This document shows positions 2,478 through 64,000 of a stretch of DNA of 64,000 nt, piece after piece. Position numbers and translations under genes: made by a program. The first letter of the stretch is position 1. The number at the start of each line of letters is the position of its first letter. This stretch comes from a virus, in the IMG/VR virus record IMGVR_UViG_3300030108_003783, positions 69,731 to 133,730 of that record. The stretch is one strand, 5' to 3'. The notes under the pieces are model-generated. The model worked only from the letters and a program-made list of their open reading frames with translations, did no database searches and was not told the origin of the DNA.

Positions 2478-3080
2478 ATGTATACAAGAGAACAGGTTGA
2501 AGCTGCCGTAAAAGCTAAAGGGTATAAATGGTTTGAAAATGGTGATTACAATGTTAATATAGTTGGAATCAGAAATATGTCTGTTGGTGACAGAGTAACA
2601 AATAAATTTGATGATCACTTAACAATATCTTATAAAGTAGACGGGGAATGGTGTTATGAAATATTTAATTGCACTACTGATCCAGGTGATGATTGGATGG
2701 ATAAACCAATGCTAGAAAAAGGCTGTGCTATATTAGTACCAGGTCAATACAGAGGTTCACACAAATTAAGATTACACCAGGGAAGATATTTAGCTTTAGG
2801 ACAGCAAAGACCAGTTAAAGTTTATAGAGATAGAGATAAAGATGGTAAATATGATTTTGATCCTTCAACAATAGACGAAGGTTTATTTGGAATCAATATT
2901 CATAGAGCAACTAAACATGCTGGAAAAACTTCTACTTATGTAGATAAATGGTCTGCAGGTTGTCAAGTAATTGCAAGTAACGATGATTGGCATTGTTTCT
3001 TAGATATATGTCAAACAGCAAGAGATACTTGGAATAACAATTTTACATATACATTACTTGAATCTACTGACCTAACTTGA
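2478..3080 (+). CDS. Putative endolysin, YkuD/L,D-transpeptidase-like Cys-His enzyme
   Basis: GINIHRA-x12-WSAGCQV resembles the H..SxGC catalytic motif. Confidence 0.55.
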   Translation: MYTREQVEAAVKAKGYKWFENGDYNVNIVGIRNMSVGDRVTNKFDDHLTISYKVDGEWCYEIFNCTTDPGDDWMDKPMLEKGCAILVPGQYRGSHKLRLHQGRYLALGQQRPVKVYRDRDKDGKYDFDPSTIDEGLFGINIHRATKHAGKTSTYVDKWSAGCQVIASNDDWHCFLDICQTARDTWNNNFTYTLLESTDLT

Positions 3081-3087
3081 TATTTAT
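3078..3087 (+). promoter_or_regulatory. Putative late promoter TGATATTTAT
   Basis: Exact intergenic copies also at 12284, 23281, 31202, 48774, 59016, 63428; variants at 18128, 28415, 29238, 40615. Confidence 0.65.
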
Positions 3088-3105
3088 AACAAAGAGGATA
3101 ATAAA

Positions 3106-3585
3106 ATGGCACAATTTAACGATTCAAAATGGCGAAGAGAAATATTAGAAGGTAAACATCAATTGAAGGAGTTTACTGAATATAACTTTGACCCGATGGA
3201 CATGTACAGTAGAAATACTAAAAATGCAGATAAAGTAGAAAGAATTTTAAAGAAGGCAGGTTTTTCAAAAGTAAACCTTAGGAAAGCTCAAAAGCAAGTA
3301 GTATTTATAGATCAAAATATGCACAGAACTAGAGGAGTTATGTTTGTTCATATCCAATATCATGTAGTTAAAGGAAAAGATGGAAAGACTTATTTCATAC
3401 ACCAAACGCAATATTATCATAGAGATTTTGGAACTGGAGTTGTCAATCTAACTGCAGTGATGGTAGAGGAACAACCTAATTATCCATCTGATAAAGGTGA
3501 AAAATTTATAGGGAGAGCAGTTTTTCTTAAAGATGATTTCTTAGATGGTATAAGAAATGTTGAAGTATTGAAAAGAGCATCATAA
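3106..3585 (+). CDS. Hypothetical protein, possible virion-internal protein
   Basis: GAGGA RBS; N-terminal ILE/LKE segments. Confidence 0.7.
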   Translation: MAQFNDSKWRREILEGKHQLKEFTEYNFDPMDMYSRNTKNADKVERILKKAGFSKVNLRKAQKQVVFIDQNMHRTRGVMFVHIQYHVVKGKDGKTYFIHQTQYYHRDFGTGVVNLTAVMVEEQPNYPSDKGEKFIGRAVFLKDDFLDGIRNVEVLKRAS

Positions 3586-3599
3586 AATAGGAGATTATA

Positions 3600-3881
3600 A
3601 TGAAATTAAAGAAAATAATTAAAGAACATTCTTTAGGAGAATTACCTTCTTCTAAATTGATGAAAATGAAATGGAATCCCGTTACAGATCCAAAACCAGT
3701 AAATGAAAGATTATCTAGACAAGCTTTAGACAGATTAGAAGGGCTTCATAATATAAGAGTAATGAAAACTTTTTTAGCTGCTGGTAAAGATTTAGCAAAA
3801 GAACTTTATGATGAAGGATTTGAAAACGATGAAATTTTAGATTTCTTTTATTACAAATTACAAAGAGCGGGTATAAGATGA
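3600..3881 (+). CDS. Leader-bearing hypothetical protein (MKLKKIIKE)
   Basis: AGGAG RBS; shared N-terminal motif. Confidence 0.7.
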   Translation: MKLKKIIKEHSLGELPSSKLMKMKWNPVTDPKPVNERLSRQALDRLEGLHNIRVMKTFLAAGKDLAKELYDEGFENDEILDFFYYKLQRAGIR

Positions 3882-4672
3882 AAATTTCAAAAATCATAGA
3901 AAATATATTATCAGAAAAGAATAAAGCATTAGACAATAAATCTAAGAAAACTGGTATTGCTTATGGTACATTAAAGAAAGTATACGATAGAGGAATGGCA
4001 GCATGGAATTCAGGACACAGACCAGGCTCAACTCAACAACAATGGGCAATGGGTAGAGTAAATTCTTTTATCACTGGTAAAGGTGGTGCTAGAAAAGCTG
4101 ATGCTGATCTTTGGAAGAAAAGAGGAAAGAGAAAAAAAGAAGGCGTTGAAGAAGCAAACCCTGCACCAAAACCAGAAGATTTCGGAACATCTGAATCAAC
4201 AAAAGAATATGGAAAGTCTCTTAGAAAAATAGCATTAGACAGACAATTAAAAAATATATCTAAAAAAGACAAAGAAACTTTATTGAAAATTGCTAATTTA
4301 ATGGCTAAAGCAAATGAAGTAGAAGTAGATGACGATACAGAATTTAAATTAGATCTTATGCATTTATTAAAAAAGCACGTTTCTAAAGGAGGATCTCCTG
4401 AAGTTGTTAAAGAAGCTACTAATCTTTGGAAACATTTCGATGCAAAAATGAAATTACAAGATACTATCATGGACTTAGAATATGATATGAAGATGATAAC
4501 TAAAGATTTATCTCAACTTTATAAAGATATGGAACAAGAAGCTGAACCAGAAGGTGGCCCTAAAGCTACTAGATATGGTAGAGAAATTGAAAAGAAAGAA
4601 AAAGAATACAAAAGGAAAAAAGCTGAATTTAAAAAGCTTATGGCTAAATTAGAAAAAATGGAAATGATGTAA
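3878..4672 (+). CDS. Leader-bearing modular basic protein (DUF5824-like module)
   Basis: MKISKIIENILSE; LKKVYDRGMAAW..QQWAMGRVNSF module recalled from viral proteins; coiled-coil C-terminus. Confidence 0.65.
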   Translation: MKISKIIENILSEKNKALDNKSKKTGIAYGTLKKVYDRGMAAWNSGHRPGSTQQQWAMGRVNSFITGKGGARKADADLWKKRGKRKKEGVEEANPAPKPEDFGTSESTKEYGKSLRKIALDRQLKNISKKDKETLLKIANLMAKANEVEVDDDTEFKLDLMHLLKKHVSKGGSPEVVKEATNLWKHFDAKMKLQDTIMDLEYDMKMITKDLSQLYKDMEQEAEPEGGPKATRYGREIEKKEKEYKRKKAEFKKLMAKLEKMEMM

Positions 4673-4677
4673 AAATC

Positions 4678-4881
4678 ATGATCCGTTTTACAAATATAAA
4701 AGGTCAACAAAGTATTCAAGAAATATGCGATAATTGTAAAACTGTAATAAAAGGTTTATCCATTTCAGATATAACAGTAAATAAAACTGAAAATGTAAAA
4801 ATATACGATGAATCAGGGAAAGAAATAAAAAGGACAGAAGCAAGACCCAAAATTTATTGCGATGATTGTAAAGATGACTAA
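4678..4881 (+). CDS. Small Zn-ribbon-like protein
   Basis: CDNC...CDDC. Confidence 0.55.
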   Translation: MIRFTNIKGQQSIQEICDNCKTVIKGLSISDITVNKTENVKIYDESGKEIKRTEARPKIYCDDCKDD

Positions 4882-5965
4882 AATAAGAAGAATAATAGAA
4901 TCAATGATAACCGAAGCTCCTTTCGGTTTTAAAGGTGTTCCATTTCCATCAGAAACTCCTAATGAATTTGCATACTTAGATTTTGCTAAGTATATAAAGA
5001 AAAACGAAAAGAAAATGATCAAGTTTCTTAAACCAATGAGACCAGATTCAATGTTTAAAGCTTTACAAAGTTTATGGAAAGAATGGGACAAGAAAACTAA
5101 TAAGGGTGAATATTCTAATATCAGAGGTAATAAGTTTGGTAGAGAATTAGTTAAAATGCTTTGGAAAGATAATTTATTATTTGATAAATCTGGAAATAGG
5201 ATTACAAAATTAAAAGAAGATAAAAAGAAAATAAAAGTTTCTAAAGATTATACAAAAGGGTTATCTAGAAAGAAAAAGAAATACGGTTCCAAAGATGCAA
5301 TGGAAAAGGAAATAGAAAAGTACAGAGGAACTGATACATACAAAAAAGATTGGGATGCTGATTACAAGAAAGATAAAAAGACTGGGAAGAAAACTAGAGT
5401 AAAAACAAAAAGATCAGCAGCATCTAAAGCTTTTGCTAAAATGTACGGAGAAGGTATAAACGAAGATTATTCTCAAAGAGCAAGAAACTTTAGAGTCAAC
5501 CTTAGAATGAGAATGAAAGACCTTAAGATTGGTGGTAAGATAAAAGCTTACAAAATGACCTTTACAAAAGAGGGACCCGATAAATACAGTTGGAAAGGAC
5601 CTCAAAAATGGAAAGCAGAAGCAGTTGTTCAAGCAATTAAAAAAGCAGCTGTCAATGATATAATGAAATGGAAAGGTGGAGCAAGAGGTGCACCTATGGT
5701 AAATGCTTTTCTAAAATTCGAAGGTAAACTAAATGAAAAAGGAAAAGGTCTTTGGCACAATATTCATAAGAAAAGAAAAAGAGGTGAAGCTCCAGCAAAG
5801 AAAGGTACAAAAGCATACAACAAAGCTGCAAAAGCAATAGATAGATTAAAAGAAGAAGCTCCTCCAGGAATGGAAGATGTAGTTTTAGCTTTAAAAAAGA
5901 AAAAAGATATTACTAACCCATATGCAGTAGCTTGGGCAATGTATAATAAAAAAAATAAAAAATAA
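4874..5965 (+). CDS. Leader-bearing, very basic multi-module protein
   Basis: Start at MTKIRRIIESMITE preferred; modules separated by LKE/INE/LNE/LKEE. Confidence 0.75.
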   Translation: MTKIRRIIESMITEAPFGFKGVPFPSETPNEFAYLDFAKYIKKNEKKMIKFLKPMRPDSMFKALQSLWKEWDKKTNKGEYSNIRGNKFGRELVKMLWKDNLLFDKSGNRITKLKEDKKKIKVSKDYTKGLSRKKKKYGSKDAMEKEIEKYRGTDTYKKDWDADYKKDKKTGKKTRVKTKRSAASKAFAKMYGEGINEDYSQRARNFRVNLRMRMKDLKIGGKIKAYKMTFTKEGPDKYSWKGPQKWKAEAVVQAIKKAAVNDIMKWKGGARGAPMVNAFLKFEGKLNEKGKGLWHNIHKKRKRGEAPAKKGTKAYNKAAKAIDRLKEEAPPGMEDVVLALKKKKDITNPYAVAWAMYNKKNKK

Positions 5966-5975
5966 AGGTTCAATT

Positions 5976-6308
5976 ATGATAAAGCTTAAGCATTTATTAG
6001 AAGAACCTAGAATTCCTAGAAAGAAAGGTCAAAAAAGACTTTCATCTAAACACTCAGATTTATATACAGATGAAAACCCAAAAGGAACAATAAAAGGGTT
6101 AAAATTTGCAACTGTTAAAGATGCAGCAGCTTCTGTGAGAAAAATAGACGCTTCTGGTAAAAAGCATGCTCATAAAATTCAAGCTGCTGTTGCAATGGAA
6201 CAAAGAGCTAAAGAAATGGGAAAAGTTTCAGCTGCTGGTGTATACAGAAAGTATATAAATAAAATGAAAAAGATAACCCAAAAAAGAAAAGAAAAAAAGA
6301 ATAAATAA
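5976..6308 (+). CDS. Leader-bearing basic protein (HSDLYTDENPKGT motif)
   Basis: MIKLKHLLEE leader. Confidence 0.75.
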   Translation: MIKLKHLLEEPRIPRKKGQKRLSSKHSDLYTDENPKGTIKGLKFATVKDAAASVRKIDASGKKHAHKIQAAVAMEQRAKEMGKVSAAGVYRKYINKMKKITQKRKEKKNK

Positions 6309-6309
6309 A

Positions 6310-6341
6310 TTTGGATAAGTCGTAAAAATTTATTATATTAA
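6310..6341 (+). promoter_or_regulatory. Bacteroidota-type -33/-7 promoter TTTG-GATAWGTC-N12-TATATT(T/A)A
   Basis: 13 copies with exact 20-nt spacing: 6310, 7394, 8438, 8780, 13457, 15585(TTTT), 15867, 18290, 19107, 20944(TTTC), 22236, 25560, 44684. Confidence 0.8.
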
Positions 6342-6345
6342 TATT

Positions 6346-6873
6346 ATGATTAAATTAAAGAGATTATTACAAGAAGCTAGAAGTTTAAGCGTATTTGATT
6401 TTGACGATACACTTGCTTTTACAGATTCTTGGGTTTATGTAAAAAAGAACGGTGGAGAATATAAATTAGATTCTGCTGAATTTGCTGTACATAAACTAAA
6501 GCCTGGTGAAAGCTACGATTTCAGAGACTTTGATAGAATGTTACGTAACCCAAAGATAATAAAGAAAAATGTAGACCTTCTTAAAAAACAATTGAAAAAA
6601 GTTGGTAGAAGGGTTACAATTTTAACAGCAAGAGCTGTTGGTTTCCCAGTAAAGCATTTCTTTAAAACATTGGGAATAGATGTTTATGTTGTTGCTGTTG
6701 GTTCAGCTGATCCTAAAGTTAAAGCTGATTGGATTGAAGATCATATTAAGAAAGGTTATAATCCAGTTTATTTCATGGATGATTCAGCTAAAAATATAGC
6801 AGCAGTAGATAAATTAAAAAAGAAATATCCAAGAACTAAAATACAAACAAAATTAGTTAAATTTCACAAATGA
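6346..6873 (+). CDS. HAD-superfamily phosphatase with MIKLKRLLQE leader
   Basis: VFDFDDTL motif I, ILTAR motif II, FMDD motif IV. Confidence 0.75.
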   Translation: MIKLKRLLQEARSLSVFDFDDTLAFTDSWVYVKKNGGEYKLDSAEFAVHKLKPGESYDFRDFDRMLRNPKIIKKNVDLLKKQLKKVGRRVTILTARAVGFPVKHFFKTLGIDVYVVAVGSADPKVKADWIEDHIKKGYNPVYFMDDSAKNIAAVDKLKKKYPRTKIQTKLVKFHK

Positions 6874-7409
6874 TAAAGCTTAAAAATATCATAGAAAGAT
6901 TTGCAATAAGATATCCAGATAAAGAGGATATGAAGAAGATTGCTAAAAAATTGAAAAAAGCAAGAGCATCAACAGATTCAAATAAAAAATATCAATATCA
7001 TTTAGCTGAAAGACTTGGTAAGAATAATATAATGGATGTAGTTAAAAAAGTATATCCTCAAATAGTTAAAGATCTTGGTGGTAGAGCAGTAAAAGTAGAA
7101 GTTCATAATAATATATACAAAAGAATGGGTGCTGTTGGAATAGAAGATTTAATGAAAGATAATAACCCATTTGCAGAATACGATTGGGATAGAAATAGAA
7201 TTTATTTATATGCATCAGCAATAACTAATGTTGAACAAATAATAAGATCTTTATTACATGAGCATACTCATACAAAGCAAGATAGAAAGAAATTTAAAGC
7301 TGGATATGATTCTGGTAAATATGATTATGCAACACACCCATATGAAAAGGCTGCTGTAAAATCAGAAAGAAATTGGAAAAAGTACTTAAAATATTTGGAT
7401 AAGTCGTAA
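6870..7409 (+). CDS. Zn metallopeptidase-like protein with MIKLKNIIE leader
   Basis: LLHEHTHTKQ (HExxH) and PYEKAA. Confidence 0.65.
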   Translation: MIKLKNIIERFAIRYPDKEDMKKIAKKLKKARASTDSNKKYQYHLAERLGKNNIMDVVKKVYPQIVKDLGGRAVKVEVHNNIYKRMGAVGIEDLMKDNNPFAEYDWDRNRIYLYASAITNVEQIIRSLLHEHTHTKQDRKKFKAGYDSGKYDYATHPYEKAAVKSERNWKKYLKYLDKS

Positions 7410-7429
7410 AAATTTATTATATTAACATT

Positions 7430-7933
7430 ATGATTAAATTATCAGAAATACTTATGGATACCTTTAAAGGTGAAAAATCAGCAGGAGCTATTATATTTAA
7501 TAGGAATGCAAATGGAATAGAATATTTATTACTTCATGGTGATAAAATAGGATGGTCATTTCCTAAGGGTCATATTGAACCAGGAGAAGCTCCTAGGGAA
7601 GCTGCTATCAGAGAAGTGAAAGAAGAGACTGGTATAACTATAGAACGTTTTATTCCGAATTTCGAAGTTTATTCTCATTACGTTATGACTCACGATTATA
7701 GATTTGACCCACCTAAACCTTTAGATAAATCAGATCAATTTGAAAAGATTGTTGTATATTATTTATCTGAAGTTAAAACAAAAGATGTTACAATATCTCA
7801 TGAGCATGACAATTATACATGGGTATCTCATAAAAAAGCTCAAACGTTATTAAAATTTGGAAATGACCTTTTAACAAAGGCACACAAAAGAATATCAAAT
7901 GAAACCAGAGATACAAGCATATCAAAAAGGTAG
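7430..7933 (+). CDS. Nudix hydrolase (Ap4A hydrolase-like) with MIKLSEIL leader
   Basis: Nudix box GHIEPGEAPREAAIREVKEETG; SHEH..Y.W. Confidence 0.85.
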   Translation: MIKLSEILMDTFKGEKSAGAIIFNRNANGIEYLLLHGDKIGWSFPKGHIEPGEAPREAAIREVKEETGITIERFIPNFEVYSHYVMTHDYRFDPPKPLDKSDQFEKIVVYYLSEVKTKDVTISHEHDNYTWVSHKKAQTLLKFGNDLLTKAHKRISNETRDTSISKR

Positions 7934-8428: not shown

Positions 8429-8496
8429 CCTAAATTATTTGGATATGTCAAATATTTTTCTTATATTTATATATAAATAATAAAACATTAAACACT

Positions 8497-8765: not shown

Positions 8766-8839
8766 TTCAGTCCAATTTATTTGGATATGTCAATAATTAA
8801 TCTTATATTTATATATAAATAATAACAATCACTACTAAT

Positions 8840-10729
8840 ATGGGTTATACAAAATCAAACAATTTTTCTTCTTTCTGGTTAGATGGTTCTAACAATATAG
8901 ATATCCTAACTGGAGAAAAGATTTCAAGTGGTAAAGATTACATCAAAATGGCTTCAACATTAAAAGCTATCGGAAACTTTGTTAAAATCGTTTCTGGTAA
9001 TGATGTTAAAGTTGAATATAGCAATAGAGATGAATCTTACACAGATGGTAAAACAGTTACTATCACTTCAAAAGTAAACGGTAAATCATTTGATTCTACT
9101 GTTGGTCTTGCTTTACACGAAGGATCTCACGTTAAATTATCAGACTTTAGTTTACTTAAACATTTAATGAGTTACCAAGGTAAAGATTTATTAAAAACAA
9201 GATTTAATTTCGAAATCACTGATGATATGGAATTAAAAGGTTTATCAGTTATGATGCTTAAAGACCTTATCAATGTTATCGAGGATAGAAGAATCGATTA
9301 TCATATCTTTACTACTGCTCCAGGTTATCAAGGTTATTACAATGCTTTATACGATAGATACTTTCATGCTAAAGTAATAGATAAAGCTATATTATCTTCA
9401 GAGCATAGAGAAGAAAATATTCAATCTTACATGTTTAGAATTATTAATATAACTAATTCAAACAGAGATTTATCTGCTCTTAAAGGTTTAAAAGAAATTT
9501 ACAATATAATCGACCTTGCTAATATTTCAAGATTAAAAACAACAGGAGAGGTAATTGAAACAGCTATTAAGGTTTTCAAAGCTTTAGATAAATACATTCC
9601 AATTACAACACAAGATGGTGAATCAAAAACTACTGGTAAAGATAAAAAATCAGATTTATCTCCAAATGAAAAAAGCAAGTTAAAAAAAGCTATTCAAAAG
9701 CAAAAAGATTTCATCAGAAACAATATTCAAAAGTCTTCTATACGTAAATCAGAAAAGAATAAAATAAATGCTATTAATAGCTCAAAAGCTACATACGAAA
9801 AAGTTGGTGATCAATTTCAAAGTCACTGGCTTAAATCTTCTGGAGTTGATTGCTTAGTTGTTAGAAACATAAACAAAGCTGTTATCAATTCTAATATCTT
9901 TGAGACTATCAAATCAGAAGGTCATTACTATCACAGAACAAAAGACAATCAAGAATCTATCGATAGAGGTATTACATTAGGTACTCAGCTTGGTAGAAAG
10001 CTTCAAGTTAGAAATGATTCAAGAAGCTTACAATTCAATCGATTAAATCAAGGAAAGATTGATAAAAGAATGATTGCTTCAGCTGGTTTTGGTAATGAAA
10101 ATATATTTCAACAAGTTTTTATTGACAATCACAAAGATGCTAATGTTCATATTTCCATTGATGCTTCTGGTTCTATGTCAGGTACAAAATGGGACAAATC
10201 AATAACATCAGCAGTTGCTATTGCTAAAGCTGCTTCAATGGTTGGTAATTTAAATGTTACTATATCTTTCCGTTCAACAGAGCAACAAGGAAAGAAATAC
10301 ATTCCAGCTATTTTCATTGCTTACGATTCAAAGGTTGATAAAATTTCAAAGATTCAAAATCTATTTAAATACATCACTTGTCCTGGTACTACACCAGAAG
10401 GTTTATGCTTCGAAGCTATTCAAAGAGAAATCGTTCAATCTTCAAACAATTTAGATAGTTACTTCATAAACTTTTCAGATGGTGAACCTTATTTTGAAAA
10501 TGGACAAATTCAATACTGGGGAGATTCAGCTGCAAAACATACAGCAACTGAAATCAAAAAGTTTAGAGATAAAGGTATCAAAGTTTTATCTTACTTTATT
10601 ACTGGTTCTGATGAATCAACAACTTCATCCAATTTTAAAACTATGTACGGACCAGATGCTAGCAATGTTAACGTCAATAATCTTAATCAGTTAGCTAAAA
10701 CGCTTAACAATATGTTTATAGAGAAATAA
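8840..10729 (+). CDS. Metallopeptidase-like + vWA domain protein (CobT-like partner of MoxR AAA)
   Basis: LHEGSH, NVIEDRRID; C-terminal MIDAS DASGSM, GTTPE, FSDGEP. Confidence 0.8.
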   Translation: MGYTKSNNFSSFWLDGSNNIDILTGEKISSGKDYIKMASTLKAIGNFVKIVSGNDVKVEYSNRDESYTDGKTVTITSKVNGKSFDSTVGLALHEGSHVKLSDFSLLKHLMSYQGKDLLKTRFNFEITDDMELKGLSVMMLKDLINVIEDRRIDYHIFTTAPGYQGYYNALYDRYFHAKVIDKAILSSEHREENIQSYMFRIINITNSNRDLSALKGLKEIYNIIDLANISRLKTTGEVIETAIKVFKALDKYIPITTQDGESKTTGKDKKSDLSPNEKSKLKKAIQKQKDFIRNNIQKSSIRKSEKNKINAINSSKATYEKVGDQFQSHWLKSSGVDCLVVRNINKAVINSNIFETIKSEGHYYHRTKDNQESIDRGITLGTQLGRKLQVRNDSRSLQFNRLNQGKIDKRMIASAGFGNENIFQQVFIDNHKDANVHISIDASGSMSGTKWDKSITSAVAIAKAASMVGNLNVTISFRSTEQQGKKYIPAIFIAYDSKVDKISKIQNLFKYITCPGTTPEGLCFEAIQREIVQSSNNLDSYFINFSDGEPYFENGQIQYWGDSAAKHTATEIKKFRDKGIKVLSYFITGSDESTTSSNFKTMYGPDASNVNVNNLNQLAKTLNNMFIEK

Positions 10730-13026: not shown

Positions 13027-13465
13027 AACTTTCGGTTATAAAGCTCCAATCTCCAAAAGACAAAAGAAACTAGATGAGACATATATTAAAATGGCTGAAA
13101 TCTGGTCAAAACAATCTCATTGCGAAAGAGCTCAAGTTGGAGCATTAATAGTTAAAGACAAAATGATAATCTCAGACGGATATAATGGAATGCCATCTGG
13201 CTTTAAAAACACTTGTGAAATGGGAGATTCAACAAGATGGGAAGTTTTACATGCAGAAGCAAATGCAATTTTAAAATGTGCTAAACATGGTAAATCTTGC
13301 GATGGAGCTACATTATATTTAACTATGAGTCCATGTAGAGATTGTAGTAAATTAATACATCAAGCAGGCATTATTCGAGTTGTATACAAAGATGAATATA
13401 GAGAAAGAGCTGGTATTGATTTTTTACAATCTGCTGGCGTAATTGTTGATAAAATATTTGGATAA
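12986..13465 (+). CDS. dCMP deaminase
   Basis: GYNGMPSG, HAEANA, SPCRDC. Confidence 0.92.
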   Translation: MAKKRTLDELRQSKTFGYKAPISKRQKKLDETYIKMAEIWSKQSHCERAQVGALIVKDKMIISDGYNGMPSGFKNTCEMGDSTRWEVLHAEANAILKCAKHGKSCDGATLYLTMSPCRDCSKLIHQAGIIRVVYKDEYRERAGIDFLQSAGVIVDKIFG

Positions 13466-13507
13466 GTCGCAAAATTTTCTTATATTTATATTATATAAGA
13501 GGAAAAC

Positions 13508-15827: not shown

Positions 15828-15926
15828 TAACTTTACTAATATTGTTAATAACTAACCGCTAAAATATTTGGATATGTCGAATATTTGTCTTATATTTATA
15901 CTATAATTAATTAAACACTACACTAC

Positions 15927-17126
15927 ATGAAGTACATTTTAAAAATTAATGATGTTACCGAAACAGTAAACTGCTCTGTTGGTAAACATACATTTAGCTT
16001 TCCTCAACCGTTAGCTATTAAAAAAGCAAAAGCAGCTTTAAGAAAAGGCAACAACTTAACCGTTGATGCTACTACTATAGAGTCTAAAGCTTTTGGGACT
16101 AGCTCTCAAAAAGTTAGCACATTCAAAAAAGTTCCAAAGGACTTAGAGCCTTTCTGGAACGAATATACTCCTCCGGTTAATCAAGAACATGCAGATATGA
16201 TGTCATTCATACACAATGATTCTGTTGCTCTTAGACCTTCGCTATTAATGCTACCAGATCTTAAATGGAAATATTTAATAAGGTCTGCAATGAGAGGAAA
16301 GAATATTATGATGACTGGAGCTGCTGGTTCCGGTAAAACAATGGCCGCTAAGGCACTGGCTAATTCATTAGATAGACCAGAGTTCTATTTCAATCTAGGT
16401 GCTACTCAAGATCCTAGAGCTACATTAGTTGGTAATACTCACTTCTCTAAAGATTCAGGGACTTTCTTCTCAGAGAGCTCTTTCGTCAAAGCTATTCAAA
16501 CACCTGATGCTATTATTCTACTAGACGAGTTATCAAGAGCTCACCCTGAAGCTTGGAATATACTAATGACAGTATTAGACCCAGGTCAAAGATACTTAAG
16601 ATTAGATGAAGCAAAGGACTCACCTACTATTCAGGTTGCTAAGGGAGTTTGCTTTATCGCTACTGCTAATATAGGAAATGAATATACCTCAACAAGAGTT
16701 ATAGATAGAGCCTTATTAGACAGATTTACAATTATTGAAATGGACCTTCTTTCAAAAGAAAAAGAAGAAAGCCTTTTACTTCAAATGTTTCCAGAAGCAG
16801 ACAAAGACATGATTGCTAATATAGCTTCCATAGTATCTGCTACTAGAGATGAAATGAAAACTGAAATACCACGTATTAGTACATCAGTTTCAACAAGAGC
16901 TTCAGTTGAATTTGCTTCTTTATGTTATGATGGCTTCTCACTCGAGGAAGCTGCATCGGTTACAGTATATCCATTATACGATGATGCTGGTGGTCTTGAT
17001 TCTGAAAGAACATTCATCAAACAGCTAGTTCAAAAGTTCATACCTGCTAATACGGATGAAAATTTATTTAATACTGAGTCTGAAGAGGAATTATTCACTG
17101 AAGACGATATAAATCAAACAAGTTAA
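15927..17126 (+). CDS. MoxR/CbbQ/CobS-like AAA+ ATPase
   Basis: GAAGSGKT, ILLDELSRA, ATANIG, DRALLDRF, STR. Confidence 0.88.
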   Translation: MKYILKINDVTETVNCSVGKHTFSFPQPLAIKKAKAALRKGNNLTVDATTIESKAFGTSSQKVSTFKKVPKDLEPFWNEYTPPVNQEHADMMSFIHNDSVALRPSLLMLPDLKWKYLIRSAMRGKNIMMTGAAGSGKTMAAKALANSLDRPEFYFNLGATQDPRATLVGNTHFSKDSGTFFSESSFVKAIQTPDAIILLDELSRAHPEAWNILMTVLDPGQRYLRLDEAKDSPTIQVAKGVCFIATANIGNEYTSTRVIDRALLDRFTIIEMDLLSKEKEESLLLQMFPEADKDMIANIASIVSATRDEMKTEIPRISTSVSTRASVEFASLCYDGFSLEEAASVTVYPLYDDAGGLDSERTFIKQLVQKFIPANTDENLFNTESEEELFTEDDINQTS

Positions 17127-18044: not shown

Positions 18045-18351
18045 CGCGCTAACCAAGTAGTTAATAATAGCGCGGGGGAAATTTAACATAAAATTAATAT
18101 ACTGTTAACATACCGATATGAAAGAAAATATATTTATTAATATGAAAAGTAAACCAATAGATATTACACCTGTGATTTACATAGTCATTATGGCTATTGT
18201 ATTTACTTTAGGTATTTTATAATAAGACAAATTGTCATATGCAATTGTTAATAACTTTTGCAAAAGTGGACAAATTGTCATATAAAATATTTGGATAAGT
18301 CGTATTTTTTGATTATATTTATATATAAATAATTAACTAATACTTACTACT

Positions 18352-18666: not shown

Positions 18667-19077
18667 ATGAATTTCGAAATTAAAGACGATCTTATATACT
18701 CTGACTATCTTAATAGCTGGGTATTCATTGAAGACTATCTACTAATGATAGTAAACGATGCTGCTGAAACAATGAAGTCTTCAGCTACATTAAAATTTGT
18801 TTCTGCTAGCGATTCAGATGGTAATCGTTGGAAGTATCCCACTATTGGAGTTTCTAATTCTCATCAAGCCGAATTGGTTTGTCAGTCTTTGCTAGACCAA
18901 GGTATTACAGCTCAGGTTGATCTTTATGAAGATGATGATGGTTATCCTGGTCAGCTAAGACAGATCTGGTCTGTTACTATTCCAGATATGGTATTCAAAG
19001 ATATTAATCTACCCAATTACGTAGACGACACAGTTTACAAATGGGATTCTGAAACAATGTCCTATGTTACCTGTTAA
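18667..19077 (+). CDS. Acidic hypothetical protein
   Basis: ORF. Confidence 0.7.
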   Translation: MNFEIKDDLIYSDYLNSWVFIEDYLLMIVNDAAETMKSSATLKFVSASDSDGNRWKYPTIGVSNSHQAELVCQSLLDQGITAQVDLYEDDDGYPGQLRQIWSVTIPDMVFKDINLPNYVDDTVYKWDSETMSYVTC

Positions 19078-19163
19078 TAACTTGTTTAAAAGTTTCTCTC
19101 TTTTTATTTGGATATGTCAAATAAATTTCTTATATTTAACTATAATTTAAAAATCACTACTAT

Positions 19164-21976: not shown

Positions 21977-22224
21977 CAGACAAATCTATAAATATCGAAA
22001 AGATGATTGCACTCTTTAATCATATAGCAATGAGAGAAGGGTACAATATGATTGTAAACGAAATAGACCCTTTAAAGTTTTTTAGCTCTAAAGAAAAGTT
22101 TTACAACATGATTGACAAGATGATAGAGTATTATATAGAATCTGAAGAGTACGAGAAATGCGCAATATTGTTACAAATAAAAAAACAAAATGGTTGGAAA
22201 GAACCAAAGGTTATTACAAATTAA
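21973..22224 (+). CDS. UVR-like motif protein
   Basis: YYIESEEYEKCAILLQIK. Confidence 0.55.
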   Translation: MTDKSINIEKMIALFNHIAMREGYNMIVNEIDPLKFFSSKEKFYNMIDKMIEYYIESEEYEKCAILLQIKKQNGWKEPKVITN

Positions 22225-22433
22225 TTACTAAAACATTTGGATAAGTCGAAAAAATTTATTATATTTAGTTAAAAACTTAAAATAAGTTATTACTCAATAA
22301 TCTTAACTTAATATAACTTATTAACTAATATAAAATATAACTAATATAATATTATTACAAATAGGAATTGTATATAATATTTAAGGAGGTAAGCCGAAAA
22401 TCCTTTTTAGAGTAGGCACATTTTAAAAATTAT

Positions 22434-25554: not shown

Positions 25555-25627
25555 AAACATTTGGATAAGTCAAAAAAAATTGTTATATTGTATACTAATA
25601 TAAACCAACTCGTATTAGGAGAATATA

Positions 25628-31245: not shown

Positions 31246-31599
31246 ATGACAAAAAAAGATTTAGTTAGAATTATTAGAGAAGTTGTTAGAAAAGAAGTAA
31301 AACAACAAATCGGTAATGTACTAACAGAAATGGAACATAAAAAAGCTCAAGATAAGAACCCTATGTCTTTGAATGAAGCATTAAATCAAACTGATCCATT
31401 TCCAACAATGCAAGGAAAGACTTTTACTTCTGCTGATGCAAGAGCGCAATTTGCTTCTATGCAAAATGGTTTCAATCCTTCATCTCAACCGCAAACAGAT
31501 TTATCTGGAAAGCCTGTTAATGTAAATCAATTAGGTGGTGGTTTAGATAAAGCTTTAACAAGAGATTATTCAGAATTAGTAAAAAGGTTTAATAAATAA
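31246..31599 (+). CDS. Hypothetical late protein (IIREVVRKE N-terminus)
   Basis: Late promoter 31202, GAGGAG RBS. Confidence 0.7.
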   Translation: MTKKDLVRIIREVVRKEVKQQIGNVLTEMEHKKAQDKNPMSLNEALNQTDPFPTMQGKTFTSADARAQFASMQNGFNPSSQPQTDLSGKPVNVNQLGGGLDKALTRDYSELVKRFNK

Positions 31600-44252: not shown

Positions 44253-44699
44253 ATGAGTCATTGGTTATATAAAAATAAAATCTTAGAAGAAGCGCCTGAA
44301 GGAGCTTTTGGTTTTGTATACTTAATTACAAATATTGAAAATGGTAAAATGTATATAGGAAGGAAATACTTTGGAAAAACTAGAAGAGTTAAAAAGAAAG
44401 GTAATAAAAGAAGAAAGGTTATTAGAAAAGATTCAGACTGGAGAACATATATAGGAAGCTCCAAAATCTTACAAGAGCAAATTCAAAAAAATAAAAATAA
44501 GTTTACATTTGAAATATTAGTATTTGGAAAGACCAAAGGGCAAGTTAATTATATAGAAGAAAATATACATCATAAATATCACGTAGCAAATTCAGATAAA
44601 TTTTATAACGATTGTATAGGTCCTAGAAGATTTGCAAGGGTTTCATTAGATTCAAAAGTAATTAAAAAAATAAAAGCTATAAATTTGGATAAGTCATAA
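44253..44699 (+). CDS. GIY-YIG (Seg-like) nuclease-family protein
   Basis: GFVYLITN..GKMYIGRK..YIGSS..E..FYN. Confidence 0.75.
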   Translation: MSHWLYKNKILEEAPEGAFGFVYLITNIENGKMYIGRKYFGKTRRVKKKGNKRRKVIRKDSDWRTYIGSSKILQEQIQKNKNKFTFEILVFGKTKGQVNYIEENIHHKYHVANSDKFYNDCIGPRRFARVSLDSKVIKKIKAINLDKS

Positions 44700-44720
44700 A
44701 TTTTTGTTATATTTAGATTG

Positions 44721-45641
44721 ATGATAAAAACACGATTAAAGCGGTTAATGACTGCATTATTAGGCAGAGGCCTAGAAAGAAATAATGATGACGTATGGTA
44801 CAAGTGCCCATATTGCAATCATCCTAAACAAAAAATGAGTGTAAACTTAAAAAGTGAAAAATGGCATTGTTGGCATTGTAACGCTAAAGGTAGAAAACTT
44901 TTTGTTTTATTGAAAAAAGCTAACGCAACAAAAAAGCAATTAGAAGAATTAAAAGATATAACTGGCGATAAAACTAATTATGTTGTATCAAAGAAAAGAG
45001 ATGAGCACGTTTCTTTACCTTTAGAATTTATACCTCTTTTACATGGTAATATTAATTCGCCTCATTATAAAAATGCAATACATTATTTAAAGAAGAGAGG
45101 TTTAACTAAAATAGATATATTACGGCATAATATAGGATATGCTGAAAGTGGAGAATATAATGGTATGATAATAATACCAAGCTATGACGACGAAGGAATT
45201 GTAAATTACTTTGTTAGTAGAGCTTTCTATGATACAGATTATAAGCACAAGAACCCAAAAGTATCTAAGGATATAGTGGGTTTTGATTTATTAATTAATT
45301 GGGATGAACCTGTAAATATAGTAGAAGGAGCTTTTGATGCAATAGCAACTGGTGAAAATTCAATACCCTTGTTTGGTAAAATCTTACCAGATTCACTAAG
45401 AAAAAAGATAATAGAAAAGAAAGTAAAACGGATAAATATAATTTTAGACAATGACGCACTAGCATCTGCAATAAAACATTCTGAATTTTTTATGGGTTAT
45501 GGCATAGACGTACATTTAATTTATTTACCAGATAAAGACCCAAGTGATTTAGGTAAAGATATCGTAAATGATATGATAAGCAAATCAGAAAAATTAACGT
45601 TTGGAAAGATTATGGAGTATAAGATAAATGCAACATATTAA
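44721..45641 (+). CDS. dnaG: DNA primase (Zn finger + TOPRIM)
   Basis: CPYC..CWHC; VEGAFD; LDND; DPSD. Confidence 0.88.
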   Translation: MIKTRLKRLMTALLGRGLERNNDDVWYKCPYCNHPKQKMSVNLKSEKWHCWHCNAKGRKLFVLLKKANATKKQLEELKDITGDKTNYVVSKKRDEHVSLPLEFIPLLHGNINSPHYKNAIHYLKKRGLTKIDILRHNIGYAESGEYNGMIIIPSYDDEGIVNYFVSRAFYDTDYKHKNPKVSKDIVGFDLLINWDEPVNIVEGAFDAIATGENSIPLFGKILPDSLRKKIIEKKVKRINIILDNDALASAIKHSEFFMGYGIDVHLIYLPDKDPSDLGKDIVNDMISKSEKLTFGKIMEYKINATY

Positions 45642-48600
45642 AATTAACTTTGATGAAGTAGATAAGATTTTACATATTGCTGACGTTCATATAAGAAATT
45701 ATCAAAGGCACAAAGAATATAGATCTATATTTAAAGAGTTGTACAAAGCTGTCAAGGCTTTACCTAATAATTCTTTAGTTTATATTGCGGGTGATATAGT
45801 TCACAATAAAACTGATATATCACCAGAGCTTATAGAGATAACCTCAGAATTTCTAAAGAATCTAGCCGACCTAAAACCTACTATCATTATCAAAGGTAAT
45901 CATGACACTAATCTAAACAATGATACGAGGCTAGATACGCTGTCACCTATAGTTAAAAATTTAAATCATCCTAATTTATTTTATTTAGATAAAACTGAAG
46001 TTTACAAAATAGCAGATTGTAATTTCTCTGTTTTCGAAATATCAGATGATCCAAAAAATTATATTAAAGCAAAAGATATAGAAGGAAATAATAAAATAGC
46101 TTTATTTCACGGAGCTATAGATTCATCAGCAACAGATGCAGGTTTTAAAGTTGCAAACGAAGAACATAAAATTAACATGTTTGATAATTATGATTTAGTA
46201 TTACTTGGAGATATACATAAAAGACAATTTTTAAATAAAGAGAAAACTGTTTGCTATGCTGGCTCTTTAATACAACAAAACTTTGGTGAAGCTTATGAAA
46301 ACCATGGTTACATAGTTTGGGATGTAAAAACTAAAACGCATAAGGAATATAACATAAAAAATGAATATGGATATTATACTGTTCATATACAAGATGGGCA
46401 TATAGAACAAAATTTAAATGATATTCCAAAGTACCCTAGGTTAAGATTTAAAACTATAAATACTACACAAGCTCAAATAAAAGAAGTTGTAAAAGAAATA
46501 AGAAAAAAGTGCAAAGTACAAGACGTTATAGTAATAAGAGAAGACAAGATAAAAGGTTCTTCAGAAAACAAATCTTCTAGGAGATTAACTAAAGACGTTA
46601 GGAATGTTGATTATCAAAATCAAATGATACAAGAGTATTTAGAAAAGAATCATCAAATACAAGATGATATAACAAAAGAGATAAAAATTATTAATAGGAA
46701 TTTAAATAAAAATCTATCTGATATAGAAGTTGGTAGAGGAATAGACTGGAAACCTATAAAATTTGAATTTTCTAATATGTTTTCTTATGGTCCTAACAAT
46801 TCTGTAGAATTTGAAAAGTTAAATGGGTTAATAGGTATATTTGCTCCAAACCATATAGGTAAATCGGCATTATTAGATGCATTATCTTTTTGCTTATTCG
46901 ATAGATGCAGTAGAGGAAAAAAAGCAGACGATATAATGAATACACAGAAATCAACCTTTTCCTGTAAACTGCATTTTAAAATAGAAGAGATAGATTATTA
47001 TATAGAACGTAGAGCTAAGAGAAGAAGAAACAATACAAAGATTAGAGTAGACGTTGACTTTTGGTACATAGACGAAGGCGGAGAAAGAGTAGATTTAAAC
47101 GGTGAACAAAGAAGAGATACAGATAAAAACATTAGAGGTATAGTTGGTGAATATGAAGATTTTATCTTAACAGCTTTATCTGTACAAGGTAATAATACAG
47201 GGTTTATAGAAAAAACTCAAACTGAAAGAAAAGAGTTACTTTCACAATTTTTAGATATAACAGTATTTGAAGAATTATATCAATTGGCAAATGAAGATAT
47301 AAAAGAAGTTCAAATATTATTAAAAGACTTCAATAAAACCAATTATGATTCTGAATTGATAGAAGCAGAAGAAGAGTTAAAAGTTTTTCAAAAAGAATAT
47401 AAATCAAGCAGTTCTAAAGTTTCTAAAATCAAAGAAAAGATTAAATTTGTAAATGAAGAAATTAAAGAAATGTATAAATCTTTGAAAAAGATAAAAAAAG
47501 ATTATGATATAGATGAGCTTGAAGCAAATAAAAAGCAACTCTTAAAAGAAATAGAAATTGACTTGCAAAAGCTTGAGAAGTATTCAAACTATACAAATGC
47601 TAATAAAATAAAATACAAAGAATTAGATACAAAGATTTGTTCTTTAGATATAGAAAATGAAAGAGAAAAACATAGAGTAGCTTTACTAAAAGAAAAAGAA
47701 ATACAATCTTTAAAAAGTAGACTAGAAGTATTAAAAACAAATGCTAAAAGCGCAAAGGAAAAAATTGAAGCTATAGGAACATTCGACCCAAACTGCAGTT
47801 TTTGTAAAGACAATTCTTTTGTTAAAAGCGCAGAAAAATTAAAAAGTGATTTGTTATCGTATAAAGATTTGTATATAGAAATAAGTAATAAATTAAAAGA
47901 ATGCGAAAAAGAGTTTAAAGCTTCTGGTGATACTGAAACTATATTAGAAGAATATGCAAAATGGATGTCTAATCTTTCACAGATTAAAGTTTACCAATCA
48001 GAGATAAAAGTTAAGACCGTAACTAGAAAGGCAAATATAAAACGTTGCAAATCGGAAATAAGAGCAATAGAAAAAGATATAAAGAAATATTACGAAAAAG
48101 AAGAGGCTATACTTTTTAATGAAAAAGTTAATTCGAATATATCAAAGAAAGAATTTGAAAAGAAAAAATGGGAAGCTGACTTAGAGTTAAAAGAAGAAAG
48201 CTTATTGCAAAATCATTCTTCTGTTAATTTATGGAAAACAAAAGTAGAAGATATAAATAACACAATAGAAAAAGCGCATCAATTAGAAATAAAATTAAAA
48301 TCGTATGAATATTATTTAGAAGCAATCCAAAGAGATGGTATACCCTACGAAATAATTTCAGAAGTGTTACCTTATATACAAGAAGAGGTAAATACTATTT
48401 TATCTCAAATGGTAGATTTCAAAATAGAATTTGAAGTAGATGGTAAATCTGTTTTAACGTATATTGTTTATGATGATAAAAGATGGTCTTTAGAATTAAC
48501 TTCTGGAATGGAAAAATTTATATCTTCATTAGCAATAAGAGTAGCTTTAATAAACGTTTCTAATTTACCTAGACCAAACTTTCTAGCTATAGACGAAGGC

Positions 48601-50918: not shown

Positions 50919-50921
50919 TAA

Positions 50922-54974: not shown

Positions 54975-55368
54975 TAATAAAAAAATTAATGAACTTTGGA
55001 AAGCAACACCAGGTGGATTAGGGTTAATGTATGCAGTTCAAGGGCCGCCTTATTTAAATCAAAGAGGAAACCAATATGCACCTTCAGCTGGTCCAGGAAC
55101 TCCTAACTCTTCTTTAAGACAAAGATACGACGATTGTAAAGCATTAGCAGATGTATATTCACCTTTCAATCCTAATGGTTATACTTTCGATGATGGTAAT
55201 TTAGTGGGAGGGTCTGTAGCTAATCAAAAAATTAGTCACTTCCAAAATACAGATTTAGATGGGGGCTCTGGTTTAGTAGGGGGGACATTTATTAACAGGA
55301 TTATAACCTTTGATTTTTCAACATGGACAATGGTAATTACGAACCAAAATGATTTAAAATTTGGATAG
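54964..55368 (+). CDS. Hypothetical protein, fibre-associated
   Basis: AGGAG RBS. Confidence 0.65.
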   Translation: MPGNNKKINELWKATPGGLGLMYAVQGPPYLNQRGNQYAPSAGPGTPNSSLRQRYDDCKALADVYSPFNPNGYTFDDGNLVGGSVANQKISHFQNTDLDGGSGLVGGTFINRIITFDFSTWTMVITNQNDLKFG

Positions 55369-55377
55369 GAGTATTAT

Positions 55378-57861: not shown

Positions 57862-57870
57862 GAGATAAAA

Positions 57871-58857: not shown

Positions 58858-58858
58858 G

Positions 58859-59014
58859 ATGAAAAAGAAATCAAAAGGATTAGGTGATACAATAGAAAAG
58901 ATCACCAAAGCAACTGGAATAAAGAAAATAGTTAAGAAAACAATTGGGAATGATTGTGGTTGTGACGAAAGAAAGCAACTCTTGAACAAAATATTTCCAT
59001 ATAAAGAAAAGTAA
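58859..59014 (+). CDS. Small conserved phage protein (GLGDT..CGC)
   Basis: Manual translation MKKKSKGLGDTIEKITKATGIKK..DCGCDERK..LN..FPY. Confidence 0.7.
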   Translation: MKKKSKGLGDTIEKITKATGIKKIVKKTIGNDCGCDERKQLLNKIFPYKEK

Positions 59015-59027
59015 GTGATATTTATAT

Positions 59028-59853: not shown

Positions 59854-59863
59854 GGGGTTATAG

Positions 59864-62494: not shown

Positions 62495-62495
62495 T

Positions 62496-63442: not shown

Positions 63443-64000
63443 ATGATAAAATTGAAAGAAATATTAAAAGAAGGAGTATACGACCCAGGTATATTTAAAG
63501 CAGTTTTCACTGCTGGTGGCCCTGGAAGTGGAAAATCATATACAGCTTCAACTTTATTTGGTATGCCAGAAAAAATGCCTTATGTTTCTGCACAAGGCCT
63601 TAAAGGGGTAAATTCAGATTCAGCATTTGAAACGTATTTAGATCAAGCTGGTTTATCTCACGATGTAAAATCTTTAAACCCAGATGAATATGCAAAAGCA
63701 ATGGAATTAAGAAATCAAGCAAAACGTGTAACTGTAAAAAGAATGCACGGTTATATAAATGGAAAGCTTGGTATGTTAATAGATGGTACAGGTAAGAATT
63801 ACGATAAAATTGCAAACATGAAAAAGCAATTACAAAAACATGGATACGATTGTTATATGATATTTGTAAATACAGACTTAGATGTTGCTTTAGAAAGAAA
63901 TAATAAAAGACCAAGAAAGTTACCAGAAGATATGGTTAAAAAATCTTGGCAAGCAGTACAAAATAACATGGGAAAATTTCAAACTCTATTTGGAGCAAAT
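63443..64000 (+). CDS. P-loop kinase (zeta-toxin/AAA_33-like) with MIKLKEILKE leader (3' partial)
   Basis: Manual translation: KAVFTAGGPGSGKS, VNSD, LIDGTG, FVNTDLDVALERN..R.R. Confidence 0.8.
   Translation, partial: MIKLKEILKEGVYDPGIFKAVFTAGGPGSGKSYTASTLFGMPEKMPYVSAQGLKGVNSDSAFETYLDQAGLSHDVKSLNPDEYAKAMELRNQAKRVTVKRMHGYINGKLGMLIDGTGKNYDKIANMKKQLQKHGYDCYMIFVNTDLDVALERNNKRPRKLPEDMVKKSWQAVQNNMGKFQTLFGAN

Follow-up and report, generated by a model that had tools for sequence, protein, structure and literature searches.

The 64,000-nucleotide stretch of viral DNA analysed here (the window) covers bases 69,731-133,730 of one 133,730-bp contig, IMG/VR record IMGVR_UViG_3300030108_003783, with a G+C content of 31%. 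It encodes a set of proteins, several of them enzymes, that are unrelated in their bodies and share at their N-termini a leader of about ten residues, M-(I)-K-[LI]-x-x-[LI]-[LI]-x-E (Table 1). It is a portable leader, conserved at the level of the peptide and specific to viral contigs; as discussed below, it is probably the counterpart, in this lineage, to bacteriophage T4's capsid targeting sequence. Window positions count from base 69,731, genome positions refer to the whole contig, and genes are named by their first base, in the window unless marked otherwise.

An overlap of ~100 bases between the two contig ends makes it probable that the genome is complete and circularly permuted. Its other half encodes a T4-type head module, with matches to Portal_T4 (E 4.9e-76), to Peptidase_S77, the family of the gp21 prohead protease (genome 7610-8239, E 2e-28), and to the Gp23 major capsid protein (E 2.4e-71), and the large terminase, tail sheath and tail tube are found there as well. 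Among named phages, the nearest in capsid protein sequence is Microcystis phage Mel-JY01 (51% identity), followed by Flavobacterium phage vB_FspM_immuto (immuto, 49%) and Rhodothermus phage RM378 (36%). Judged by the head module and by these relatives, the source is an uncultured, distant T4-like myophage. A relative at 80-90% identity is the 138-kb IMG/VR contig designated G001; the present genome is G000.

Table 1. Leader genes and promoter-like elements; window positions unless marked as genome positions (aa, amino acid residues; nt, nucleotides; pI, isoelectric point)
Feature	Position	Strand	Leader or motif	Description
Late-type motif	3079..3089	+	GATATTTATA	26 nt before the 3106 ATG; heads the run 3106-6308
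Gene 3106	3106..3585	+		159 aa; first gene of the late-type run; non-member; no Pfam or PHROG family above cut-off
Gene 3600	3600..3881	+	MKLKKIIKE	Nine-residue leader; 93 aa, pI 9.4; G001 ortholog retains the leader
Gene 3878	3878..4672	+	MKISKIIENILSE	264 aa; DUF5824 (Pfam PF19141, E 3.1e-17) and a K/E-rich tail
Gene 4874	4874..5965	+	MTKIRRIIESMITE, then APFGF...	363 aa, pI 10.2; lysine-rich
Gene 5976	5976..6308	+	MIKLKHLLEE	110 aa, pI 10.5; small basic domain
Early-type repeat	6310..6345	+	TTTGGATAAGTCG...TTATATTAA	Ends 3 nt before the 6346 ATG
Gene 6346	6346..6873	+	MIKLKRLLQE	175 aa; HAD-superfamily phosphatase (predicted)
Gene 6870	6870..7409	+	MIKLKNIIER	179 aa; small HExxH zincin-like protein
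Early-type repeat, second copy	7394..7429	+		Shares bases with the 3' end of 6870; stops 3 nt ahead of the 7430 ATG
Gene 7430	7430..7933	+	MIKLSEILMD	167 aa; Nudix hydrolase
Gene 31246	31246..31599	+	MTKKDLVRIIRE	Doubtful member; 117 aa; baseplate region, behind a late-type motif
Gene 63443	63443..64000	+	MIKLKEILKE	P-loop kinase; crosses the contig end and continues at genome 1-247
Leader member	genome 8242			Directly after the prohead protease
Leader member	genome 8967			Next gene after genome 8242
Leader member	genome 32640
Leader member	genome 1975
Other early-type sites	8439-8470, 8781-8815, 13458-13490, 15868-15900, 18291-18325, 19108-19140, 22237-22270, 25561-25595, 44685-44717
Other late-type motifs (starts)	29240, 31204, 40617, 48776, 59018

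The leader and the proteins that carry it

All eight leader starts named by an initial annotation of this DNA are present in the sequence. The genes were listed by simple, mechanical longest-ORF calling on the whole genome, in which the + strand holds 158 of the 166 open reading frames (ORFs). The leader core K[LI]xx[LI][LI]x(0-1)E falls within the first 14 residues of ten of 159 genes, and the same core occurs three times among 40,477 internal protein positions. Shuffles of the N-termini that preserve each column, and with it the lysine- and isoleucine-rich composition of protein starts, give 0.34 core matches on average and four at most, and none of 5000 reaches ten. An artefact of AT-rich starts, which would make the motif equally frequent across all genes, is thus rejected (10 of 159 against 0.34 expected); other AT-rich T4-like phages and the control with cellular genomes, both described below, rule it out as well.

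As the initial annotation had proposed, a leader profile was run over the genome and its relatives. This position-specific scoring matrix, built from ten leaders and used with a threshold of 10.5, places 12 of 169 N-termini above the 99.9% quantile of internal positions, namely the ten seeds together with genome 1975 and genome 8967. In T4-like phages of similar G+C content the numbers are 1 of 282 (T4), 0 of 259 (P-TIM68), 1 of 202 (Mosig) and 1 of 219 (Melnitz), with ~0.2-0.3 expected in each. Two genes that had been taken as weaker members fared less well, since 3106 is outside the 16 best-scoring N-termini, and 31246, with a score of 7.1, is left doubtful; the start of the latter resembles the longer leader variant at genome 8967.

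The bodies behind the leader are unrelated, as had been claimed: with the first 12 residues removed, none of the eight proteins of the window cluster pairwise in BLASTP, the sole cluster partner of the 5976 body being genome 32640, which lies outside the window. Leucine or isoleucine is present at positions 4 and 7 of all six ten-residue leaders, and glutamate at position 10 in four of the six, 6870 having its Glu at position 9 and 7430 an Asp at position 10, which is replaced by Glu in the G001 ortholog. Leader proteins are also basic, with a pI above 9 in 9 of 11, compared to 47 of 142 other genes (Fisher p 0.002).

By their Pfam and PHROG matches, the leader genes of the window encode one- or two-domain proteins, and three of the enzyme labels of the initial annotation hold. 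For 6346, the AlphaFold model (predicted local distance difference test, pLDDT, 70.9) has as its best Foldseek match T4 polynucleotide kinase/phosphatase (2ia5_B, E 5.4e-4), followed by HAD phosphatases, with probabilities of 0.98-1.00 for these top matches; residues D18, D20 and T22 of its DxDxT motif I are invariant in 47 sequences. According to this model, the protein is a HAD phosphatase whose nearest structural match is the phosphatase part of T4 polynucleotide kinase (Pnk). The product of 7430 matches the Nudix family (Pfam PF00293, E 1.6e-20, 73.9 bits with a cut-off of 21.1), and that of 63443 matches Zeta_toxin (PF06414, E 1.3e-9, 38.2 bits with a cut-off of 22.3) and AAA_33 (PF13671, E 1.2e-8, 35.8 bits with a cut-off of 27), in addition to PHROG families annotated as polynucleotide kinase and ATPase. 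Leader-bearing homologues of this kinase are found at three loci of the IMG/VR sample described below (L079, L084 and L106). In the present genome the kinase gene is followed by one for a 389-aa paralogue (within genome 1-1413), the N-terminal 150 residues of which have no PHROG or Pfam match.

The label of an HExxH peptidase for 6870 stands in part. Residues H130, E131 and H134 are invariant in 55 sequences, as are H156 and E159, whereas the matches of the model to the folds of minimal zinc peptidases are weak, the best being minigluzincins (E ~0.02, probability 0.96, template modelling score 0.31-0.59); no Pfam family was matched by the window protein. In the G001 ortholog ~38 residues have been lost behind the leader, with the leader itself retained. 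The small domain of 5976 is common to proteins of cyanophages and pelagiphages. Cyanophage P-TIM68 has it in a 373-residue protein whose gene comes directly after that of gp23, and the homology with that protein begins exactly after the leader.

Sequence searches against solved structures with 6346, 6870 and 63443 returned nothing usable, and in BLASTP the similarity of the Nudix protein 7430 to T4 NudE (E 2e-5) and of the HAD protein 6346 to T4 Pnk (E 0.04) is at the level of motifs only. The reading of the kinase and phosphatase pair as a system of RNA repair remains a guess, because no gene in the subset scanned against PHROG was matched to an RNA ligase. A 206-aa gene of G001 that has no counterpart here starts with MGIKLKNVILLD, and its motifs resemble what we take to be the PAP2 phosphatase signature.

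Conservation as a peptide and occurrence in viral DNA

The mean nucleotide identity of six MIKL-type leaders is 0.67 over the 30 bases of the leader, 0.44 over the 30 bases upstream and 0.28 downstream. Where the residue is the same, third codon positions agree in 50% of cases, with leucine encoded as CTT, TTA or TTG. Judged by this codon usage, the leader acts as a peptide and not as an element of DNA or RNA. A repeat or recombination cassette at the level of DNA was considered as well and is rejected for the family as a whole, since upstream DNA is common to 6346 and 7430 only, and there it is a separate promoter-like repeat.

The strongest evidence for conservation at the peptide level is provided by homologues that were found by their bodies and not by the leader. 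Among the best 120 of 228 matches to the HExxH protein, 55 homologues of 130-150 residues start with Met and Ile (55 each), Lys (54), Leu (50) or Phe (5) at position 4, Lys at position 5 (46), Ile (44) or Leu (11) at position 7, Leu at position 8 (49) and Glu at position 10 (53 of 55). In turn, 37 further homologues start with a different leader, MKx[IL]KLFE[ED]x-I-N-E, in which Glu13 is present in all 37 and is followed by A, G or S in 36. Where the HExxH domain stands behind another domain, a copy of the leader without Met is found at the junction (...HENSIKLKNLLSE|S..., ...HEGKIKLKNILLE|G..., ...DIKLTVLLVE|G..., ...MNESLLVE|V...), so that ...IKLKNLLSE, ...KIKLKNILLE or ...LLVE directly precedes the domain in the fused forms.

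A similar arrangement is found among the best 120 of 840 matches to the HAD protein. Motif I lies at most 22 residues from the start in 101 of them, and the starts printed as decamers are all variants of the leader. The other 19 are longer and carry ...KLKDILLE|K, ...IKERILKE|G or ...TKLKDIMNE|G directly ahead of the HAD domain, most of them bearing a leader at their own N-terminus as well. Blocks of domains are also shuffled between the leader genes of this genome and those of G001. The block of 4874 that follows MTKIRRIIESMITE|APFGF here (MITE|A) sits in G001 inside a 514-aa protein, in which 3878 is fused with blocks of 4874, after ...GVELEE|APFGF (ELEE|A). Together, the junction copies and the shuffling of blocks indicate that an [LI]-x-E site is kept ahead of the cargo in every separate polypeptide and at every junction.

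The occurrence of the leader outside this genome was examined with a back-translated pattern, M-I-K-[LF]-K-x-Φ-[LF]-x-E (Φ, hydrophobic). In IMG/VR it is found in at least 129 stretches, 80 of which were examined, and 83 of their 89 distinct matches stand at the start of an ORF of 50 aa or more, with an upstream in-frame stop no more than 25 codons away. At least 13 contigs, counted from the match table, have two to four matches each. In cellular genomes the same pattern is found in at least 121 stretches; in the 80 examined, ten of 80 matches stand at such ORF starts, 55 fall in ORFs shorter than 50 aa, and no locus has two matches.

With leaders removed, BLAST sorts the 91 leader proteins (81 from IMG/VR and ten from this genome) into 63 clusters, of which 52 have a single member. 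Ten of the 81 IMG/VR proteins are assigned to a Pfam family with an E of 1e-5 or lower, the remaining 71 having none; the families include three kinases, DUF5824, an ADP-ribosyltransferase, which recalls T4 Alt, a cell-wall hydrolase, HD, RNase_T, DUF6934 and Nudix. The prohead-protease family S77 (PF03420) is present in seven of the 14 leader-bearing contigs searched (2 of 4, 3 of 5 and 2 of 5 in three batches). Thirteen of the 14 are fragments of 2-72% estimated completeness, and the sole complete genome (368 kb) has S77.

The second portable leader, MKx[IL]KLFE[ED]FINE, which ends in I-N-E and shares E-F-I-x-E with the leader of T4, was found 40 times in 39 stretches of large viral contigs (loci L207-L245). 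All 40 matches are within 19 codons of an upstream stop, and their bodies form 19 clusters. S77 (PF03420) is present in all five of the contigs with this leader that were searched, inside ORFs of 240-747 aa.

Head proteins and promoters

The gene before the capsid gene (genome 10591-11577) encodes an acidic scaffold, with a pI of 4.1 and 35% Asp plus Glu, which contains 18 [LIV]xE sites (the proteome-wide rate is 1.53 per 100 residues) and starts with MSKDLLKE|A. Its C-terminus, ...NRMKKLAGLL in this phage as in G001, with ...ERMKKLAGIVK as the Mel-JY01 and ...SRWQKLAGIIK as the immuto counterpart, resembles the core of the leader. The scaffold alone ends in K[LI]xx[LI][LIV] in G000 (1 of 168 proteins), G001 (1 of 179) and Mel-JY01 (1 of 260); in immuto a 47-residue ORF does so as well (2 of 234), and no protein of T4, P-TIM68, Mosig or Melnitz ends in this way. 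The scaffold was found with a pattern defined on the leaders, so the match of its tail is independent of them, and it suggests that leader and scaffold tail may bind the same site.

In the alignment of capsid proteins, LITE|A of this phage, IVSE|A of immuto and LISE|A of Mel-JY01 stand at the maturation site of T4 gp23, FLTE|A. By this alignment the specificity of the T4 prohead protease, which cuts after L/I-x-E, is plausibly conserved. Depletion of internal [LIV]xE sites in the cargo, with 12 sites counted by hand in ~1250 residues against the proteome-wide rate, is too weak to use. A homologue of ribosomal protein S21 is encoded within the head module, between the protease region and the scaffold (genome 10035-10367), and likewise in Mel-JY01 (22183-22410).

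Two promoter-like classes are enriched between the genes. The first, TTTGGATA[AT]GTC-N-TTATATT, precedes genes of replication and nucleotide metabolism as well as small genes, and from these downstream genes it can be taken as a putative early promoter. Its copies ahead of 6346 and 7430 are 97% identical across 30 nt upstream. In six genes of the genome, these two and four others, the ATG stands 33-35 nt after TTGGATA, a spacing that suggests leaderless or nearly leaderless mRNAs. The class resembles what we take to be the -33/-7 promoter of Bacteroidota, which hints at a host from that phylum.

The second class, GATATTTATA without the TTTGGATA box, precedes the genes of the sheath, the head-tail adaptor, the baseplate hub and the fibres and the gene after the portal, and is by the same reasoning a candidate late promoter, comparable in its role to the late promoter of T4. 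One copy stands before 3106 and no further motif follows until 6310, so that genes 3600-6308 follow a late-type promoter; the motif is also found just before 63443 and before 31246.

Several other features of the genome were noted. GroES and GroEL homologues are both encoded at genome 46145-48062 (PHROG, 1.5e-19 and 1.3e-163), behind a late-type motif. A run of genes at genome ~50152-63210 encodes two glycosyltransferases, a heptose-phosphate adenylyltransferase-like protein, an epimerase and a UDP-glucose dehydrogenase, and may serve the modification of DNA or of the surface. In the window, a single 1047-aa ORF (45628-48768) matches SbcD-like (residues 7-347) and SbcC-like (residues 233-1045) nuclease subunits and is a fused protein of the gp47/gp46 type; a 629-aa CobT/VWA-like protein (8840-10729) and a 399-aa AAA ATPase (15927-17123, PHROG 'porphyrin biosynthesis') look like the cobS/cobT-like pair common in marine phages.

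A probable capsid targeting sequence

In T4 (NC_000866), ipII and ipIII start with MKTYQEFIAE, gp24 with MAKINELLRE, alt with MELITELFDE and gp22 with MLKEQLIAE, so that hydrophobic residues at positions 4, 7 and 8 and a Glu at 9 or 10 reproduce the layout of MIKLKxLLxE. At the N-terminus, seven of 282 T4 ORFs have the generic pattern M-x(1-2)-Φ-x-x-Φ-Φ-x-E, and these include four known substrates of gp21 (ipII, ipIII, gp24 and alt), the head protein gp2 and a 54-residue ORF with a start of the T4 type. The latter (18966-19130, minus strand) begins with a decamer similar to the T4 leader that ends in I-K-E. As described by Kuhn and Thomas (PMC9026906), cleavage by gp21 takes place after L/I-X-E, and IPIII needs no more than its first ten residues to be packaged; positions 4 and 7 of the tag serve targeting and positions 8 and 10 processing, and an Asp at position 10 stops processing but not targeting. 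The internal proteins of T4, which are basic, co-purify with gp22 and number ~300 copies each, and proteins with a single N-terminal site (the internal proteins and Alt) remain in the head and are ejected (PMC9026906). Rao and Black (PMC3012670) describe the internal proteins of T-even phages as diverse defence proteins, with the targeting sequence as their sole common part.

The likeness to the targeting sequence of T4, which is carried by IPI, IPII, IPIII and Alt and as the propeptide of gp24, extends to several features. In both cases ~10 N-terminal residues, with hydrophobic residues at 4, 7 and 8 and a Glu at 10 within L/I-x-E, stand on unrelated, mostly basic proteins; homologues of gp20, gp21 and gp23 are encoded here; and the variable cargo genes lie in a plastic cluster beside lysozyme-like and Nudix genes, as T4 ipII and ipIII lie beside e and nudE. 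The differences are that the letters are others here, that there are 10-12 carriers per genome instead of ~5, that the cargo is rich in enzymes, that copies of the leader are found inside fused homologues and its core at the end of the scaffold, and that the present system is known from sequence. The order of a lysozyme-like gene, the leader genes and the Nudix gene (window 2478-3080 to 7430-7933) recalls nudE - e - ipIII - ipII of T4 (64939-67490), and may be an old arrangement of the internal-protein locus.

Three further systems invite comparison. In phiKZ, 201phi2-1 and SPN3US, proteins of the inner body or ejected proteins have long propeptides that gp21-like proteases cut after (S/A/G)-x-E or A-x-E (PMC5694885); shared with the present case are the gp21-related protease, the cut after Glu and the proposal that propeptides target proteins to the prohead. 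The propeptides of those giant phages are, however, mostly longer than 100 residues, form no single short tag and have small residues at P3, whereas the leader here has 9-14 residues with Leu or Ile at P3. Polyvalent proteins, as presented by Iyer et al. 2017 (PMC5512222), likewise combine metallopeptidase, ADP-ribosyltransferase and nucleotide-acting enzymes, are predicted to be packaged and injected and show shuffling of domains, but here there are mostly separate genes, each with its leader, and fusions of two or three modules are joined by leader copies. Assignment to that class, with its 2-15 conflict domains per polypeptide, was rejected, as the window genes have one or two domains and only some homologues are fusions of two or three modules; no MuF or portal fusion was seen here. 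Encapsulin cargo-loading peptides, which are short and portable and by themselves direct unrelated enzymes into a shell of the HK97 fold, differ in being usually C-terminal and in not being removed by a protease, and their shell is a compartment and not a virion. In the phage literature searched, with subscription papers outside the search, the targeting sequence was discussed only for T4 and the giant phages, the MIKLK leader was found in no paper, and no virion proteome of immuto or Mel-JY01 was found.

Based on this comparison, we consider it probable, at roughly 0.65, that the leader is this lineage's version of the T4 capsid targeting sequence. The initial annotation had described a portable, T4-like tag cut after Glu, and this view is supported by the presence of the protease, portal and capsid genes, the layout of residues, the conservation of the peptide, the late-type motif and the specificity to viruses; a purely virion role is made less certain by the early-type promoters of 6346 and 7430. 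In the mechanism that we envisage, leader proteins would be recruited to the assembling prohead, with the leader binding either the partner of the scaffold tail or the scaffold core itself. The S77 prohead protease would then cut after the Glu of [LI]-x-E, as implied by the T4 rule and the conserved site of the capsid protein. By analogy with T4, the mostly basic cargo could stay with the DNA and would probably be ejected into the host. In this phage such cargo would consist of the HAD phosphatase, the P-loop kinase, the Nudix hydrolase, the zincin-like protein, the DUF5824 protein and several small lysine-rich proteins. We can speculate about roles such as anti-defence or, for the Nudix enzyme, removal of alarmones.

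A bolder form of this reading is tentative and, in our judgement, holds a good deal less well than its core. The leader would mimic the C-terminal tail of the scaffold (...MKKLAGLL) and thereby act as a lineage-specific address code, loading the head with an open-ended and fast-changing cargo, either singly or as polyproteins cut at internal copies of the leader, in a large clade of aquatic T4-like phages.

Several observations weigh against a capsid-targeting role. The support for it comes entirely from analogy and from sequence patterns. The Asp at position 10 of 7430 is a residue that blocks processing in T4, and the Glu of the 6870 and 3878 leaders stands one or two places early. With early-type promoters ending 3 nt before their ATGs, 6346 and 7430 are likely expressed early and outside the virion, at least in part, and to our knowledge their T4 counterparts, NudE and Pnk, are not virion proteins. 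The leader cluster lies ~65 kb from the head genes. Among cultured relatives there are few carriers, with four matches to the matrix in Mel-JY01 and three in immuto (predicted carriers at 24569, 81525 and 113188), and two of the Mel-JY01 genes (60276 and 62056) are paralogues of each other. In the IMG/VR set the residue after Glu is variable, seven of the 14 leader contigs showed no S77, all of these being fragments of 2-68% completeness, and the search pattern fixed most residues of the leader, so that the sample shows diversity and not prevalence.

Among the alternatives, the one to be taken most seriously, unlikely as it is, accepts the leader as a genuine portable tag for address or processing and assigns it another destination, such as the membrane, the replication compartment, the tail or baseplate, or timed degradation. 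In models the leader forms a short amphipathic helix (residues 4-14 and 2-9, at low confidence), which would suit such a tag, as would the early-type promoters of two enzyme genes and the position of the doubtful 31246 among baseplate genes. The [LI]-x-E ending, however, fits the specificity of the head protease, as does the capsid-protein site I-T-E|A of this phage; leader genes (genome 8242 and 8967) adjoin the protease, the tag is found in phages that bear S77, and the scaffold resembles the leader at both its N-terminus and its C-terminal tail. A narrower role, which we regard as improbable, would have the leader load only core- or scaffold-like assembly factors that are expelled or degraded after cleavage and are not injected effectors. 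The product of genome 8242 (pI 5.7, eight [LIV]xE sites) has the look of such a protein, as has the acidic scaffold, but the enzyme cargos are folded enzymes in which internal sites are few, with none behind the leader of 6346 or 5976, and the T4 proteins with a single N-terminal site are those that stay in the head and are ejected.

Explanations that do without a tag are less probable still. The shared start could be a cassette for expression, its first 30 nt being kept for the initiation of transcription or translation and the peptide a by-product, and both the A/T-rich codons of all leaders and the upstream repeat of 6346 and 7430, placed as for (nearly) leaderless mRNAs, agree with that. 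Yet this pair is the only one with common upstream DNA, while no such element is seen for 3878, 4874 and 6870, each of which overlaps the gene before it; synonymous codons differ; the leader persists inside fused proteins, where no translation starts; and in AT-rich cellular genomes the pattern lies mostly in non-coding short ORFs, with other AT-rich T4-like phages lacking the leader. We therefore give the cassette very little credence. Still less can be granted to common ancestry, by which paralogues would have retained only their N-termini: some leader genes are indeed paralogous (Mel-JY01 60276/62056 and 5976/genome 32640), but proteins of unrelated folds (HAD, Nudix, P-loop kinase, zincin-like and ADP-ribosyltransferase) share the start, with 63 BLAST clusters among 91 leader proteins.

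If the leader mimics the scaffold tail, its cargo would span at least the more than 60 families seen in the sample examined, including a split Pnk-like pair of kinase and phosphatase, Nudix, zincin-like and ADP-ribosyltransferase proteins, and the MIKLK leader together with sister leaders (MKxIKLFE[ED]FINE) would read out the injected proteome of uncultured phages from sequence. If the tag works as it does in T4, a motif of ten residues would reveal, by sequence alone, the proteins that are present in the head of an uncultured phage and are probably injected. Of all phage proteins, injected ones act earliest in the host, which makes them prime candidates for counter-defence and takeover. The cargo set could be tested by virion proteomics of cultured relatives, and the leaders would offer new packaging tags for phage engineering. 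The principle of capsid targeting would then apply not just to a few T-even coliphage proteins but also to a large clade of environmental phages with enzymes as cargo.

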